64,000 nt of DNA from Longimicrobiales bacterium. GTDB taxonomy: Bacteria > Gemmatimonadota > Gemmatimonadetes > Longimicrobiales > Gaopeijiaceae. The stretch spans positions 1,728,001 to 1,792,000 of the forward strand of contig CBDDCX010000008.1 in NCBI GenBank assembly GCA_965226375.1. Direction: 5' to 3'. Below, piece by piece: positions 27,001 through 33,000 of the stretch. Position numbers: made by a program. Every line of letters begins with the position of its first letter. Within the stretch, counting starts at the first letter, position 1.

Positions 27001-30000
27001 ACATGAGCCACAGCATGTGCGCTCTCCAGGGCCGGAATGATGCCCTCGAGTTCAGACAACCGATGAAACGCCTCGAGAGCCTCCGCATCCGTCATGGACA
27101 CGTATCGAGCCCGACCAGATTCCTTGAGGGACGAATGCTCCGGACCTACGCCCGGATAATCCAGACCCGCCGAAATCGAGTGTGCCGGTGCCACCTGGCC
27201 GTCGCTGTTCTGAAGAACATAACTCATGGCCCCGTGGAGGACACCAGGTTTTCCGGCTGCCAGCGTGGCGGAGTGTCGACCCGAGTCCAGGCCCTCCCCG
27301 GCTGCCTCGACCCCGATCAGCTCGACGTCATCATCTCGAAAGGCATGGAAGATCCCCATGGCGTTGGATCCCCCCCCAACACACGCCACTATGGCCGCCG
27401 GCAGGGCGTCTGTCCGATCGAGCATCTGTTCACGGGCCTCGACGCCGATGATCGCCTGGAGGTCCCTCACGATGCGGGGAAATGGCGCGGGCCCCACCAC
27501 CGAACCGATGATGTAGTGGGTGGTCTCGACGTGAGTCACCCAGTCCCGGATCGCTTCGTTCGTCGCGTCCTTGAGGGTTCGCGTGCCTGAAGCCACGGGA
27601 CGCACCTCTGCGCCCAGTAGCTCCATCCTGTAGACGTTCAGCGCCTGCCGCGCGATGTCTACCTCTCCCATGTAGACCACACACTCGAGATCGAAGAGCG
27701 CACAGGCGGTCGCGGTCGCGACTCCGTGTTGGCCCGCCCCCGTCTCGGCAATGATGCGGCGCTTACCCATACGGCGAGCCAGGAGGGCCTGACCCAAGGT
27801 GTTGTTGATCTTGTGGGCACCTGTGTGGTTGAGGTCTTCCCTCTTGAGGTAGATAGGCCCCGCCCCCGCGTACTCCTCGAGCCGCCGCGCCCGGTACAGG
27901 GGCGAGGGGCGACCCACATAGTCACGAAACAGGGCTGCGAGTTCACTGTGGAACGCACTGTCCGCCGCGGCCGCCTCGTACGCCGCCTCCAGTTCGTCCA
28001 GAGCCGATATGAGCGTTTCAGGGACGTATCGGCCACCGAAGGACCCGAAGCGACCCGCTTCAGCCTGAATGCTCATCGTTTCTCCGCATCCGGGATGGGA
28101 GCGTCGTGCGTCCCAGCGTTACGCACGAACGCTCGAATCAGATCGTGATCCTTGAGCCCGGGCGAAAGCTCCACGCCCGAGCTGACGTCGACCACATCCG
28201 GTGAGAGCACCCGCACCGCGCGTCCAACATTGTCTGGAGTGAGGCCTCCGGCGGCGATCAGCTCGACCGTCGACGGAAAGGCGTCTACGAGGGAAGCGAC
28301 GTCCTCCCATTCGAACGAGACGCCCCCGCCTCCCGGGCGGTCAGGGCGCCAGGCGTCCAGAAGTAAACCGTCCACCGAAGCCCCGTATTCGCTCACAGCC
28401 CGCCTCACGTCCTCTGGTTCTCTCACCCTCACGGCCTTCCAGATGGCCCAATCGCCCCGCATGCGCAACTCCTGCACAAACCCCGGGCTCTCTTCCCCAT
28501 GAAGCTGAATCACCTCAGCGCCCACCAGCGCAGCGATACGGTGGGCCTCATCCACAGATTCGTTCACCAAGACCGCGACCACAGGTGTATCCACCGCGAG
28601 CGCGATATCCACCGCCTGATCGGGCAGAAGGCTTCTGCCGAATCCCTGTGAGAGGATCATACCGAGATAACTCGCCCCGAGCTCCTCCGCCGCTCGCGCG
28701 TCCACCGCGGAACAGATTCCGCAGATCTTGACCCGCACGTCAGCCATGATCCCGAGCCCTCCTCGTCGCTCCCGCGAGGGCGGCCACCCCCTCGCCGGGA
28801 TCGTCCTGGCGGAGCAGCGACTCTCCGACCAATACGGCGTCCACTCCCTTGTCACCGAGCATGCGCACGTCGTCCCGAGTCCGGACACCGCTTTCGGAGA
28901 CCAGGACCACCTCCGGAGGAATCCGGTCCAGAAGGCCGAGCGTCACCTCCAGCCGGGTCTCGAACGTCTGCAGATTCCGATTGTTCACGCCGAGTAGTGT
29001 GGCGCCAGACGCCACACCGCGATCGACCTCCTCTCCGTCGTGGGCCTCGACCAGAGCCGTCATGCCCAACTCCTCGGCCAAGACGCGTAGGGAGCGCAGG
29101 AGCGTGTCGTCGAGAATCCGAGCGATGAGCAGGATGGCGTCCGCCCCGGCGGCCCTCGCCTCGTAGATCTGAGACTCGTGGATCATAAAGTCCTTCCGGA
29201 GGACAGGTAGGCCTACCAGAGCTCGGGCCCCGGTCAAATCTTCGAGTGAACCTCCAAAGTAGTCGCGGTCCGTCAGTACACTCAGGGCCGCCGCGCCTCC
29301 GGCCTGATAGATCGGCGCGAGTTGCAAGGGATCCAGATCGGGACGAATAAGCCCGGCGCCCGGCGATCGCCTCTTGATCTCCGCGATCACCGCAACGGAC
29401 TCGCGACCGCGGAGGGCTCCGAAGAAGTCCCGAGGAGGGCCTGCGCTCTCAGCCGCAGCCCGCAGCTCCGTAACCCGATCTGCGAGCCCCGCCACCTCCT
29501 GCCGTTTGGTTTCCACGATCCGCTCGAGTATACCCACCGGGGCACCACCCACCGGAGCACTCATTCTCGCCCCCGATGACCGGCTAAACACCATGATCCC
29601 CACACGTCCTTGCGCTTCGGGCAACGTTCGGGTATCGTTTGTTCGGGTCCTATTCGGGTGCCATCGATACGGAGGCGAACACAATGCCCCTGACGAAGCG
29701 ACAAAAAGAGATCCTCGATCATATTGAGAGTTTCATCGACGAGCACGGGTACGCGCCGAGCTTCGAAGAGATCGCTGAGGCGTTCGGATACTCATCCCTC
29801 GCCACAGTGCACGAGCATCTGAGCAATCTGGAGCGCAAGGGCTACATCCGGAAGGCCTACAACGAGAGCCGGTCCATCGAGTTGGTCGGGCACCCGTCCT
29901 CGCCCGGAGGGCTCGAGTTGCCGCTCCTGGGGGCTGTGGCCGCCGGGCTTCCGATCGAGGCCATCGAGCAGCAGGAGACCCTCGCCGTGCCGCCGGACAT

Positions 30001-33000
30001 GGTGCGGGCCGGGAGCGACAACTTCGTGCTTCGTGTGCAGGGTGAGTCCATGATCGACGAGCAGATCCGCGACGGAGACTACATCGTCGTGACGGCGCAG
30101 GAGACAGCCACCGACGGCCAGATGGTCGTTGCTCTGATCGGGGGTGATTCTGCGACCGTCAAGAAGCTGTATCGCGAGAGCGACGGTCGTATTCGGCTGC
30201 AGCCGGCCAACCCGGCCATGCAACCGATTCTCGAGGATCCGGACAACGTCCAGATTCAAGGCGTCGTCGTGGGGGTGATCCGAAAGTACTAGTGTGGTGT
30301 AGCGGAAGTCACCACACTAGATACGCTCAGGGCTTGCGAGTCGCCGCCTTGAGCAAGTTCAGAGCTTCCAGCGCCTGGCCGTTGTCGAGGGCCTCCCTGG
30401 CCAGATCGACACTCGCCTCCAACGTCTCCGTAGCACCCGAAACGTAGATAGCCGCGCCGGCGTTCAGCAGCACGGCCGACCGGGCACCTGCCTGCCCCGC
30501 TCCCTCGAGCACTGCCATGATGACCTCGGCGTTTTCCATGGGCTCGCCCCCGGCCAACTCCTCGGCCGAGCAAGGCTGCATGCCGAAGTCCTCGGGGCTG
30601 ATCGTACGCTCGCTCACCACACCGTCCACCAACTCGGCCACTCGCGTAGGCCCCATGGGACTGACCTCGTCCATCCCGGGCTCCCCGTGCACGACCAGCG
30701 CGTGGGCATGGCCCAACTCATGGAGCGCCTCGATCACGAGCGAAACCAGAGACGGATCCGCCACACCCACCAACTGCCTGCCGACCCCGGCCGGGTTGGT
30801 GAGCGGTCCCAGAATGTTCATCACCGTGGGAAAGCCGAGCTCCCTACGAACGGGCCCGACATGCCTCATGGCCGGGTGCAGGAGAGGAGCGAACATAAAA
30901 ACGAGCCCGACCTCTTTGAGCACGATAGCCATCTCTTCCGGAGTGAGCTCGATGCGTACTCCGAGCGCTTCCAGAACATCGGCACTCCCGCTTCGGGAGG
31001 TGAACGAGCGATTGCCGTGCTTGGCAATGCGTACCCCCGCCCCGCAGGCGACCAGCGCGGCGGCCGTGGAGATGTTGAAGGTGGTCACGGCCCCGCCCCC
31101 CGTCCCACAGGTGTCGATAAGCTGGTCCGTCGCCTCGGATGCCACACGCACCATCGCCTTGCGGAGCGCTCTCACGCCTCCGGCCACCTCGACGGGGAGG
31201 ACACCCCTCACGCGAAAGGCGGTGAGCAGCGAGGACATCTGCGCCGGAGAAGCACTTCCGTCCATGAACGTGTCGAACGCGAACTCCGCCTCTGCCGCGT
31301 TGAGGTGCTCGCCGTCGGCCACCTTGAGAAGGACATCCCGAAGGTCCGGCGAGTGCGACGATGAGGTGGGACTCTGACTCATTCGAGATGGCGTTCCCGT
31401 AAAAAATGCAGTGCCGGAGAACGCGATTACCCCGGCAGAATACAGCTACAATTCAACCTTTCGGGCCTCGCTTGACAACAGTTACCTCCGTTCTACCTTC
31501 CGGGCGTGGAATCCGCGAGGGTGAATCGCCTCAAGCTGATCCTTCAATATGATGGCTCAGCCTTCTTCGGCTGGCAGATGCAGCGTGAGGAGCGAACCGT
31601 TCAAGGGGAGCTCGAAGCGGCTCTGACGCGTCTTACGGGTGCCCGGCGCCCGGTCGAGGGATCGGGCCGAACGGATCGGGGAGTCCATGCGACCGGTCAG
31701 GTGGCGGCTGTGTCACTCCCTGAGAGCTGGGGACCGCCCAAGCTCGAGAAGGCTCTGAACGCTGTGCTGCCCAACGATATCTGGATCGAATCCGTCGAGT
31801 CGGCCGCCCCTGACTTCAGCCCCAGATACGATGCGGTTGCCCGCACGTACCTCTATCGACTCGGTGTCTCGGAGCAGAGCCGGTCTCCGTTTCATCGTCC
31901 TTGGTGCTGGGCCCTCACGACCGCGGTACACTCCGCCCTCTTGGGAAGAGCCGCCAATCTCCTGGCCGGGGAACACTCGTTCAAAGCCTTCGCCAAGTCG
32001 GGACAGCCCGAGCGTGGTGAGCTGTGCACGATCCATTCAGCCCGGTGGGAGACTTGGGAAGATCTCGGGTTTTCGTTCCAAATAACGGCGAACCGTTACC
32101 TCCACCACATGGTCCGTTACCTTGTAGGGACGATGGTGGACATCGCGCGCCAACGGCGTCCGGTGGACGACCTTGGCCGTCTGCTCACGAACTCGGACGA
32201 CGACCTGGAAACGTCCCCTCCGGCGCCCCCCGAAGGCCTGTTTCTCCATCATGTGGCATATCCGACGGAACCCCGGTTCCAAGACCCCGGACGCCACCAC
32301 GACGACGCCGCTACGACGACGCCCTGAACCGAAGAGCACATGAGAATTTTTCTCGACACCGCCGATACCGATGAAATCCGCCGAGCCGTCGAAGCCGGCC
32401 TGATCGACGGAGTGACCACCAACCCCTCCCTCATGGCCAAGGTCGCGGGAGACCGTGAGCCGGCTGACCTCTTTCTCGAGATCTGTCAGGCTGTGGATGG
32501 GCCGGTGAGTGCCGAGGTCGTGGCGCTGGACGCCGAAGGCATGGTCGAGCAGGGCCGCCGCCTGGCCAAGATCCACGACAACATCGTCATCAAGGTCCCG
32601 CTCACCGAGGCGGGGCTCGTCGCGTGCCGTACCCTCCGGAGTGAAGACATCGGCGTCAACGTGACCCTCTGCTTCTCACCCACCCAGGCTCATCTGGCGG
32701 CGAAGGCGGGAGCCACGTTCATCTCGCCCTTCATCGGTCGTGTCGACGACATGGCGGGCGACGGGATGGAGCTCATAGCTCAGATCCGGCAGATCTACGA
32801 CAACTACGATATCGAGACGCAGATCCTGGCCGCGTCCATCCGGCATCCGCAGCACATGGTGCAATCGCTCATGCTCGGCGCGGACTGTGCAACGTTGCCA
32901 CCCAAGGTCTTGTATCAATTGTTGAAGCACCCGTTGACCGACCGCGGCCTGGACGGGTTCATGGCGGACTGGAAGAAGTTGGGAAGGGACCTCTAGAGGG

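Follow-up and report, generated by a model that had tools for sequence, protein, structure and literature searches.

The lexA gene of the Longimicrobiales genome studied here (the source genome, G000) lies antisense within a run of trp genes, with trpC and trpD on the minus strand, and is preceded by a direct repeat, CCGAA-N6-CCGAA, which reads TTCGG-N6-TTCGG on the lexA coding strand. LexA motifs change unusually fast. The locus raises the question of whether this repeat is the operator of the LexA encoded beside it, which genes share it and how far it extends beyond this genome. An earlier note had proposed that it is bound by the trp-linked LexA, and the analysis leads to the same protein: the repeat is very probably the operator of the trp-linked, cleavable LexA in the class Gemmatimonadetes, as judged from boxes at lexA in 101/101 class genomes and from box letters that follow the LexA helix. 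The window is the whole stretch of 64,000 nucleotides that was analysed, and coordinates are given within it.

Predicted operators and promoter of lexA

Both copies claimed to precede lexA are exact and lie on the minus strand. The features of the locus are as follows.

28740..29564, minus strand: trpC (NCBIfam TrpC), divergent from lexA; context, outside the operator
29610..29615, plus strand: predicted −35 hexamer TTGCGC of the lexA promoter (TTG in 81, 89 and 80 of 90 two-box genomes)
29616..29631, minus strand: distal predicted LexA operator CCGAA-N6-CCGAA, exact match
29633..29638, plus strand: predicted −10 hexamer TATCGT (T, A and last T in 87, 86 and 88 of 90 genomes)
29642..29657, minus strand: proximal predicted LexA operator CCGAA-N6-CCGAA, exact match, over the inferred transcription start
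29671..29675, plus strand: ribosome-binding site GGAGG, read from the sequence
29684..30292, plus strand: lexA, 202 aa, intact (TIGR00498)
30327..31382, minus strand: trpD (TIGR01245), convergent with lexA

The distal box lies 53 bp and the proximal box 27 bp upstream of lexA. Together with base 29632, the distal box makes up the whole 17 bp spacer between the predicted −35 and −10 hexamers, and its placement relative to these hexamers is conserved among the two-box genomes. In G000 these lexA promoter hexamers were missed by a simple scan for the sigma-70 consensus. The proximal box probably covers the lexA transcription start. No contig of RNA run X1 (contigs only, 0.12 of words) covers the lexA promoter, and the run was left out of the evidence.

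The LexA protein scored 209.3 bits against TIGR00498 (curated cut-off 110.95). In an alignment Ala87-Gly88, Ser122 and Lys160 match A84-G85, S119 and K156 of E. coli LexA, so that the Ala-Gly site, Ser and Lys are retained as previously stated. Helix 3 carries His43-Glu44. The counterpart of residue 44 in E. coli LexA is Glu45, which is described as a DNA-contacting residue in PMC3091678. A LexA dimer would occupy both half-sites in a head-to-tail arrangement, with one turn of the helix between them. Because the distal box fills the −35/−10 spacer and the proximal box covers the predicted start, bound LexA would block RNA polymerase. After DNA damage, RecA filaments would promote self-cleavage of LexA at Ala87-Gly88 by Ser122 and Lys160, and this would release lexA, recA and a PA0069-type radical SAM gene, as well as PolY, ImuB-C and DnaE2 where these are present.

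Conservation across the class Gemmatimonadetes

The box is conserved at lexA, recA and mutasome genes, in its position as well as in the genes downstream of it. An unbiased count of spaced dyads recovered CCGAA-N6-CCGAA upstream of lexA in 101/101 class genomes, compared with 0/101 in a coding control and 0/101 in a downstream control. The top dyads at these promoters were all direct repeats, with a period of 5+6 bp (11 bp). Two boxes precede lexA in 90/101 genomes, mostly 24–28 bp apart, and the lexA-promoter boxes share one strand in 193/193 sites. In all 101 orthologous promoters the half-sites are kept while the spacer bases vary. Linkage to trp genes is looser, with both trpC and trpD flanking lexA in 76/101 loci and neither in 18/101.

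At recA a box was present in 23 of 28 class loci (coding control 0/30), which agrees with the earlier claim of a repeat upstream of lexA orthologues and most recA genes. The recA site is exact in only nine of the 28. The single copy listed before recA in G000 exists, but with one mismatch (CCGAA-N6-GCGAA). Five loci have no box, and one of these genomes has a boxed second recA.

Matches in the source genome

G000 contains 20 exact matches, 13 of them intergenic with the gene caller used here, while intergenic counts for spacers 3–5 and 7–11 were 0–7. The total at spacer 6 was not above that of other spacers (12–39), and six of the 13 intergenic matches are copies of one dispersed element, found where Ser/Thr-kinase genes, or what remains of such genes, have their 5′ end. 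With this repeat collapsed, 8/15 matches were intergenic compared with 31/197 for other spacers (Fisher P=0.0016). The intergenic excess noted before (12 of 20) thus holds, with the correction that a single repeat supplies part of it. The reversed-pattern control offered alongside it is weak, because a genome of another class that uses GCGAA still gave 20 versus 6. A search of five relatives, run without a positive control, did not detect the dispersed element. A link between this element and integrons is unsupported, because a regular-expression scan detected no complete attC site in G000 and neither of its integrase-like genes has a box.

Genes downstream of the box

Promoters of G000 were ranked with a matrix built without G000 sites. 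Among 3948 promoters, dnaE2 ranked 2, ImuB-C 3, the radical SAM gene 5, lexA 7, PolY 8 and recA 15, so the SOS genes that an earlier matrix scan had placed at the top remain there. The Y-family homologue and DnaE2 are present (PF00817 and NF004225 matches); the name ImuB-C was assigned from position and PMC6511836, and the small gene is DUF6504-like. In G000 PolY, ImuB-C and dnaE2 lie apart from one another, at three loci that each have an exact box. Copies had been listed before dnaE2 and an imuB-like gene, g1451, and both are exact; g1451 is the Y-family homologue, and ImuB-C is a separate gene. The exact box of ImuB-C was absent from the earlier list; this ImuB-C-like gene encodes 68 aa and is followed by recX.

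The PolY-ImuB-C-dnaE2 mutasome was found in 9/30 panel genomes, with a box in the PolY operon leader in 9/9; in the other 21 the queries used detected neither this dnaE2 nor this PolY. The radical SAM gene g2040 does have a box, as claimed, but it encodes a PA0069-family protein rather than a photolyase-like one, and genes of this type were boxed in 10/11. Box orientation varies at this gene and at recA, which fits a repressor site and not a sigma element. The G000 regulon excludes uvrA, ruvA, recN, uvrC and uvrD, consistent with the lack of high-scoring sites reported for the first three, and uvrA was boxed in only 2/30 genomes. The conserved regulon core of the class is lexA and recA. The regulon had been described as compact and mutagenesis-centred; it is small, and its focus on mutagenesis applies to G000 and 9/30 panel genomes.

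Residue 44 and the first base of the half-site

Among 301 distinct LexA proteins, His-Glu helices were accompanied by CCGAA in 111/118 cases and never by GCGAA, and His-Lys helices by GCGAA in 91/126 and never by CCGAA. A reverse search found the promoter-embedded TTCGG repeat in 118 metagenome loci, 42 of them with lexA downstream; residue 44 in these 42 LexAs was Glu in 29, Gln in seven, Asp in six and Lys or Arg in none. The first base of each half-site is most likely read by helix-3 residue 44, with Glu, Asp or Gln pairing with C and Lys or Arg with G. It is not the sole determinant, because a Gln43-Lys44 locus (L160) has a CCGAA match and Gln-Asn helices also pair with G. Tyr or Phe at residue 43 was accompanied by GTGAA in 6/17, and Gln43 by GCGYA (from spacer-filling sites).

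These comparisons lean towards a simple, repeatedly switched helix-3 code, by which a cross-phylum LexA group would read 11 bp direct repeats, residue 44 specifying the first base (Glu/Asp/Gln for CCGAA, Lys/Arg for GCGAA) and residue 43 the next bases. Neither the phylogenies nor the AU test showed that Glu44 arose more than once. A single clade for the Glu44 lineages was not rejected (AU P=0.405), and the best tree, from which the exception rows L160, L129 and L355 were left out, had seven coincident residue-44/base changes with only two independent pairs on well-supported branches (P=0.5).

Were the code correct, one substitution would rewire a whole SOS regulon, the box common to Gemmatimonadetes, Patescibacteria, Krumholzibacteria and one Acidobacteriota family would be explained, and there would be a cultured model for a two-fold symmetric LexA dimer on a head-to-tail site. 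SOS boxes of uncultured lineages could also be predicted from the LexA protein alone. The larger value of the analysis is in this co-variation: over hundreds of genomes, the motif seems to be predictable from a single side chain. Specialists would expect the motif, and would regard the code as useful rather than startling.

Alternative readings of the box

An activator or alternative sigma factor, and not LexA, might bind the box and co-regulate damage genes. The distal box is indeed fixed in orientation and position in the lexA promoter, with every site on one strand. However, the box occurs in either orientation at recA and the radical SAM gene, it sits between −35 and −10 hexamers of the ordinary kind, and its letters change in step with the LexA recognition helix across phyla, which leaves this reading improbable. 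Binding by a second LexA-like protein of G000 (C8:1317246-1317854), alone or with LexA, is more improbable still. This protein is above the TIGR00498 cut-off and conserved in 5/5 genomes of families f1, f2, f5 and f6, but it has a different helix, neither an Ala-Gly site nor a catalytic Ser, and no box upstream of its gene. As a query it found no counterpart in 4/5 genomes of families f4 and f7, where the boxes are intact, and a weak partial match in the fifth.

To a similarly slight degree the boxes could control the divergent trpC as part of tryptophan regulation, since they lie 52 bp from its start and the trp genes so often flank lexA. Yet all 18 lexA loci that lack trp genes keep the boxes, which are also present at recA and the mutasome genes; LexA may have a side effect on trpC. 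Least probable of all is an artefact of the dispersed repeat or of word frequency. The six repeat copies and the unraised spacer-6 total would suit it, but the intergenic enrichment survives repeat collapse, and the cross-genome footprint, with both half-sites kept in every orthologous promoter, already refutes it. Binding by the trp-linked LexA is the preferred reading.

Comparison with known LexA boxes

Outside the class, other Gemmatimonadota have GCGAA-N6-GCGAA before lexA in 11/15 and CCGAA in 0/15, so the description of the box as the operator of the phylum applies at class level only. Nor is the motif specific to the phylum: sequences labelled Patescibacteria or Krumholzibacteria have the identical box before lexA, and so does one Acidobacteriota family (that of G248), at 10/16 Glu44 loci, with no exact box at the other six and recA boxed in 0/4. 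Acidobacteriota lexA genes had GCGAA-N6-GCGAA in 42/60 and, in a second set, 28/30. Because the same box or a one-letter variant precedes lexA in several phyla, the result enlarges a class of control sites that was already known; the scope of the claim narrows from a phylum signature to a class-level box common to other phyla. The box belongs to a family of 11-bp-period direct repeats predicted to be read by a broad LexA group, including Acidobacteriota, other Gemmatimonadota classes, Sumerlaeota, some Myxococcota and Patescibacteria.

The box had been called unreported. This stands for the assignment to Gemmatimonadetes: the literature searched on LexA yielded no SOS operator for the class (supplements of older LexA-motif studies could carry the motif and helix comparisons) and no match for a TTCGG direct repeat with LexA, and the supplements of PMC7739468 and PMC8565304 neither list a Gemmatimonadota motif nor give site sequences for Patescibacteria. 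It does not stand for the type of site, as PMC7739468 cites published direct-repeat boxes for both Patescibacteria and Acidobacterium. The analysis adds a predicted SOS operator and core regulon for a class that is common in soil and sea but poorly studied.

TTCGG-N6-TTCGG also fills the −35/−10 spacer before lexA genes that carry the label Patescibacteria group or Ca. Nealsonbacteria, and residue 44 of these LexAs is likewise Glu or Gln. Sanchez-Osuna, Barbe and Erill reportedly gave TTCGG-N6-TTCGG as the experimentally tested Patescibacteria consensus in 2017. However, the LexAs of Gemmatimonadetes make up a separate clade (100/97), which groups with Acidobacteriota and not with the low-GC clades that contain the Patescibacteria-labelled rows, and the class has two lexA boxes, a trp-linked locus and rarely a box at uvrA; the same site is apparently read by different LexA lineages. 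The Acidobacteriota box shares the LexA group, the 11 bp period and the place in the promoter spacer, but its first base is G with Lys44, where Gemmatimonadetes has C with Glu44, and there is mostly one box at lexA, with recA boxed in 0/3 examined. For Acidobacterium capsulatum, Mazon et al. (2006) are said to have described GTTC-N7-GTTC. The Thermoanaerobaculia lexA leader had no Rfam match.

The alphaproteobacterial box, GTTC-N7-GTTC or GAAC-N7-GAAC as given in PMC3323433, PMC3091678 and PMC8565304, was detected before the lexA genes of three named Alphaproteobacteria. It is likewise a direct repeat with an 11 bp period and a GAA core, but its conserved letters are shifted (GAAC, compared with CCGAA in the class) and its LexA falls outside the Gemmatimonadetes/Acidobacteriota group. 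GAAC-N7-GAAC matched 8/101 class promoters, 1/101 Lys44 GCGAA sites and neither G000 box. The left half of the class box, CGAA followed often by C (40 %) and then by a purine (95 %), resembles the half-site of the Bacillus/Actinobacteria box, CGAAC-N4-GTTCG according to PMC3091678; that box is an inverted repeat, whereas the second half of the class box is direct. The mutasome resembles the Kyrpidia tusciae type, described in PMC6511836 as an inactive PolY, a stand-alone ImuB-C and DnaE2 without ImuA. Seven of the nine relatives that have PolY, stand-alone ImuB-C and DnaE2 carry them in one run, whereas G000 keeps the three genes apart.

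The lexA locus and its direct repeats

Two exact copies of the direct repeat CCGAA-N6-CCGAA (TTCGG-N6-TTCGG on the lexA coding strand; hereafter the box) were confirmed ahead of lexA in the window. The features of this locus are listed with a second LexA-like gene (L118) on contig C8 of the source genome.

Window 29616-29631, minus strand: distal box, exact match, 53 bp before lexA
Window 29642-29657, minus strand: proximal box, exact match, 27 bp before lexA
Window 29684-30292, antisense between trpD and trpC: lexA ORF (TIGR00498, 209 bits; cut-off 111)
C8:1317246-1317854, minus strand: LexA paralogue L118

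In the trp-linked LexA, Ala87-Gly88 aligned with the cleavage site of E. coli LexA and Ser122 and Lys160 with its catalytic residues, as the earlier note had stated. The closest named match to an alignment of same-phylum LexAs was L121, a protein labelled Gemmatimonadota, and the placement in this phylum follows such labels. The trp gene run spans window 28740-31382, and trpC starts 52 bp from the predicted lexA operators.

The paralogue L118 was found in 5/5 genomes of families f1, f2, f5 and f6, and the Atlas clusters nearest to it were mostly Gemmatimonadota. Neither the Ala-Gly site nor the catalytic Ser is present in L118, and no box was found upstream of its gene; with L118 as query there was no match in 4/5 genomes of families f4 and f7, where the boxes are intact. 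These features argue against L118 as the binder of the box; the trp-linked LexA, which had been proposed for that role, is kept as the candidate. L118 probably acts as a regulator that is not cleaved and has a target of its own.

Distribution across the Gemmatimonadota

A lexA match was obtained in 197 of 201 genomes searched. An unbiased count of spaced 4-mers upstream of lexA was applied to 101 of the 182 matches in the class of the source genome, taken to be Gemmatimonadetes (the source genome itself, best matches and approximately one per genus), and CCGAA-N6-CCGAA alone reached 101/101 genomes, with 0/101 in each of the coding and downstream controls. This upholds the claim that the box precedes lexA orthologues across the class. 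Two boxes were present in 90 of these genomes, mostly 24-28 bp apart, and strand relative to lexA was identical for 193/193 sites. Among the 90, the three bases of a TTG before the distal box were kept in 81, 89 and 80 genomes and the T, A and T of a TAnnnT after it in 87, 86 and 88, with the distal box filling the 17-bp spacer between these elements. The box had been described as the LexA operator of the phylum, which did not hold: before all 15 lexA matches from other classes, CCGAA-N6-CCGAA occurred in 0/15 and GCGAA-N6-GCGAA in 11/15, so the box is a class-level feature. Both trpC and trpD flank lexA, which is antisense to the run, at 76/101 class loci versus 0/15 in other classes; a further 18 class loci have neither gene at lexA, and all 18 carry the box.

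Box sites and promoters in the source genome

The exact box occurs 20 times in the source genome; other spacers reach 12-39, so the total at spacer 6 is not enriched. A simple gene caller made for this analysis (3948 genes, 12.5 % intergenic) placed 13 of the 20 in intergenic DNA, versus 0-7 at other spacers. The reported intergenic enrichment was thus reproduced, but a single dispersed element accounts for six of the 13; with its copies collapsed the enrichment persists (8/15 versus 31/197 at other spacers; Fisher P=0.0016).

The 3948 promoters were ranked with a scoring matrix trained on 191 sites, none of them from the source genome. High ranks were confirmed for dnaE2 (2), a radical SAM gene (5), lexA (7), the imuB-like polymerase gene PolY (8) and recA (15); a 68-aa gene ranked 3. 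Boxes were found as claimed before dnaE2, PolY and the radical SAM gene; the recA site has one mismatch. The promoters of uvrA, uvrC, uvrD, ruvA, ruvB, recG and recN ranked between 336 and 3759, in line with the claim that uvrA, ruvA and recN have no high-scoring site, and a dinB promoter ranked 107; uvrB was not located.

Three other sites on C8 were noted. The radical SAM box (229269) is common to a divergent HhH-GPD glycosylase gene; a one-mismatch box (1995073) precedes a DinB-family (PF05163) gene; and an exact match with a GC-rich spacer (720200), 58 bp upstream of an rpoB-like ORF, has a low matrix score (13.5) and is probably due to chance.

The dispersed element gave 12 nhmmer matches, with main copies at C6:430438, C7:609202 and C8:904501, 906523, 1936513 and 1938927, and six weaker copies. 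It measures ~110-200 bp and begins in the end of an ORF; a stretch like one half of an attC site follows, then an intact copy of the box and a promoter-like stretch, which leads into the start of a Ser/Thr-kinase gene, often truncated, or of its remnant. It was not found in five relatives, in a search run without a positive control. The element may spread SOS-responsive promoters.

The predicted regulon

In a panel of 30 genomes, 28 of them from the class, recA was preceded by NCGAA-N6-NCGAA in 23/28 class genomes (exact box in 9), in 0/2 from other classes and in 0/30 coding controls. The recA half-sites are unequal: the first keeps CCGAA and the second often begins with A or G. For uvrA, taking the best-scoring copy per genome, a box was seen in 2/30. 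Genes for dnaE2 and PolY of this type were found in the same 9/30 genomes, and the leader of their operon has an exact box in 9/9, one ~1.2 kb upstream. A PA0069-family radical SAM gene was found in 11/30, with a box at 10 of the 11. In 7/9 relatives, PolY and dnaE2 are arranged in a single run with a small DUF6504-like gene, matching the PolY/ImuB-C/DnaE2 variant described in PMC6511836. In the source genome these three genes lie apart, and an exact box precedes each of them.

C7:281422-282747: PolY
C7:270256-270462: ImuB-C-like 68-aa gene, recX 33 bp behind
C7:250951-254349: dnaE2

Since recA has the box in 23/28 genomes and the mutasome was found in 9/30, the conserved core is lexA and recA, and mutagenesis genes join the regulon where present. 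The description of the regulon as mutagenesis-centred therefore fits the source genome and the nine panel genomes with dnaE2 and PolY, all boxed; in the other 21 these two genes were not found with the queries used. Another genome, G191, has six boxes within 7 kb (C1:7567-14236), grouped as three pairs whose members face opposite ways and are 25-27 bp apart.

Co-variation of LexA helix 3 and the half-site

Among 80 loci of named LexA relatives, GCGAA-N6-GCGAA preceded lexA in 42/60 from Acidobacteriota, and this word or a close variant of it also stood before lexA in Sumerlaeota, Myxococcota and Auribacterota. In one Acidobacteriota family it was present at 28/30 loci (26/27 once the unpublished G213, G226 and G207 are set aside). 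Another family has Glu44 in helix 3, and in a phylum-wide sample CCGAA-N6-CCGAA was found at 10/16 Glu44 loci; recA of this family had a box in 0/4.

Across 301 distinct LexAs, those three unpublished genomes included, His43-Glu44 (the helix of the source genome) accompanied CCGAA in 111/118 and GCGAA in none, His43-Lys44 accompanied GCGAA in 91/126 and CCGAA in none, and Tyr/Phe43-Lys44 accompanied GTG(A/T)A in 6/17. Gln43 helices accompanied TRCGC repeats in the same promoter spacer, with one Gln-Lys locus matching CCGAA. Other spacer-filling 11-bp repeats were seen at Thermoanaerobaculia-type loci L139-L199 and at L317-L378 (TRCGC with Gln43, TTCAC with Tyr/Phe43). Six Thermoanaerobaculia-type loci (L140, L156, L169, L175, L180, L195) share a conserved GC-rich stretch ~120 bp before lexA, possibly a structured RNA; Rfam gave no match at four loci searched.

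A reverse metagenome scan for promoters holding the TTCGG repeat returned at least 118 loci. Among the matches listed, lexA was downstream at 42/118 (five at 340-570 bp). Of these LexAs, 29 have Glu at residue 44, 7 have Gln and 6 have Asp, while none has Lys or Arg; two of the 42 were near Gemmatimonadota LexAs (92 % and 71 %) and the others were not close. Taxon labels of ten loci were Patescibacteria group (2), Ca. Nealsonbacteria (1 cluster), Krumholzibacteria (2 clusters), Spirochaetes (1) and uninformative (4). Pfam searches of 64 other downstream ORFs among the matches listed gave RecA (2), Y-family polymerase (2), radical SAM (7), DUF3276 (4), DNA methylases (2) and LAGLIDADG (7), the last, at seven loci listed, directly behind the boxed promoter. 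Seven low-GC LexAs (L498, L513, L526, L540, L544, L558, L575) have long C-terminal extensions, by eye like DNA methyltransferase starts.

In trees built with helix columns removed, Gemmatimonadetes LexAs formed a starred clade within a group with Acidobacteriota, outside which Alphaproteobacteria, Bacillus and Geobacter LexAs fell. Glu44 changed three times in a 56-row tree, and an AU test did not reject a single Glu44 clade (P=0.405). In a 57-row tree with metagenome rows there were seven changes of residue class and seven of the base, but just two independent pairs of changes on starred branches (P=0.5); bootstrap values of this tree were not yet fully stable, and it did not include the exceptions L160, L129 and L355. 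Residue and base thus co-vary strongly, and this may plausibly have arisen more than once.

Proposed mechanism and relation to known LexA systems

On the observed sequence, conservation, promoter position, target genes and co-variation, the box is very probably a LexA operator, well supported as that of one class. A LexA dimer would bind half-sites head to tail, one turn apart, repress sterically and undergo RecA-stimulated cleavage. Residue 44 would read the first base of the half-site, a code that we consider somewhat more probable than its absence. Such pairing, Glu with cytosine and Lys with guanine, is in keeping with the usual chemistry of base recognition. Residue 44 aligns with E. coli Glu45, given as DNA-contacting in PMC3091678. 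The value of the analysis lies mainly in this testable rule.

Known work, as far as the available text of these sources goes, includes a direct-repeat LexA motif in Balneolaeota and others cited for Verrucomicrobia, Patescibacteria and Acidobacterium (PMC7739468), LexAs of Parcubacteria, Microgenomates and A. capsulatum listed as experimentally validated (PMC8565304, Table S2), and PMC3323433 and PMC3789691. Neither an SOS box of Gemmatimonadota nor a rule for residue 44 turned up in the literature searched, in line, for this phylum, with the claim that no paper reports the box. The letters themselves are the same as in the box ahead of lexA in Patescibacteria, and they differ by one base from the Acidobacteriota box.
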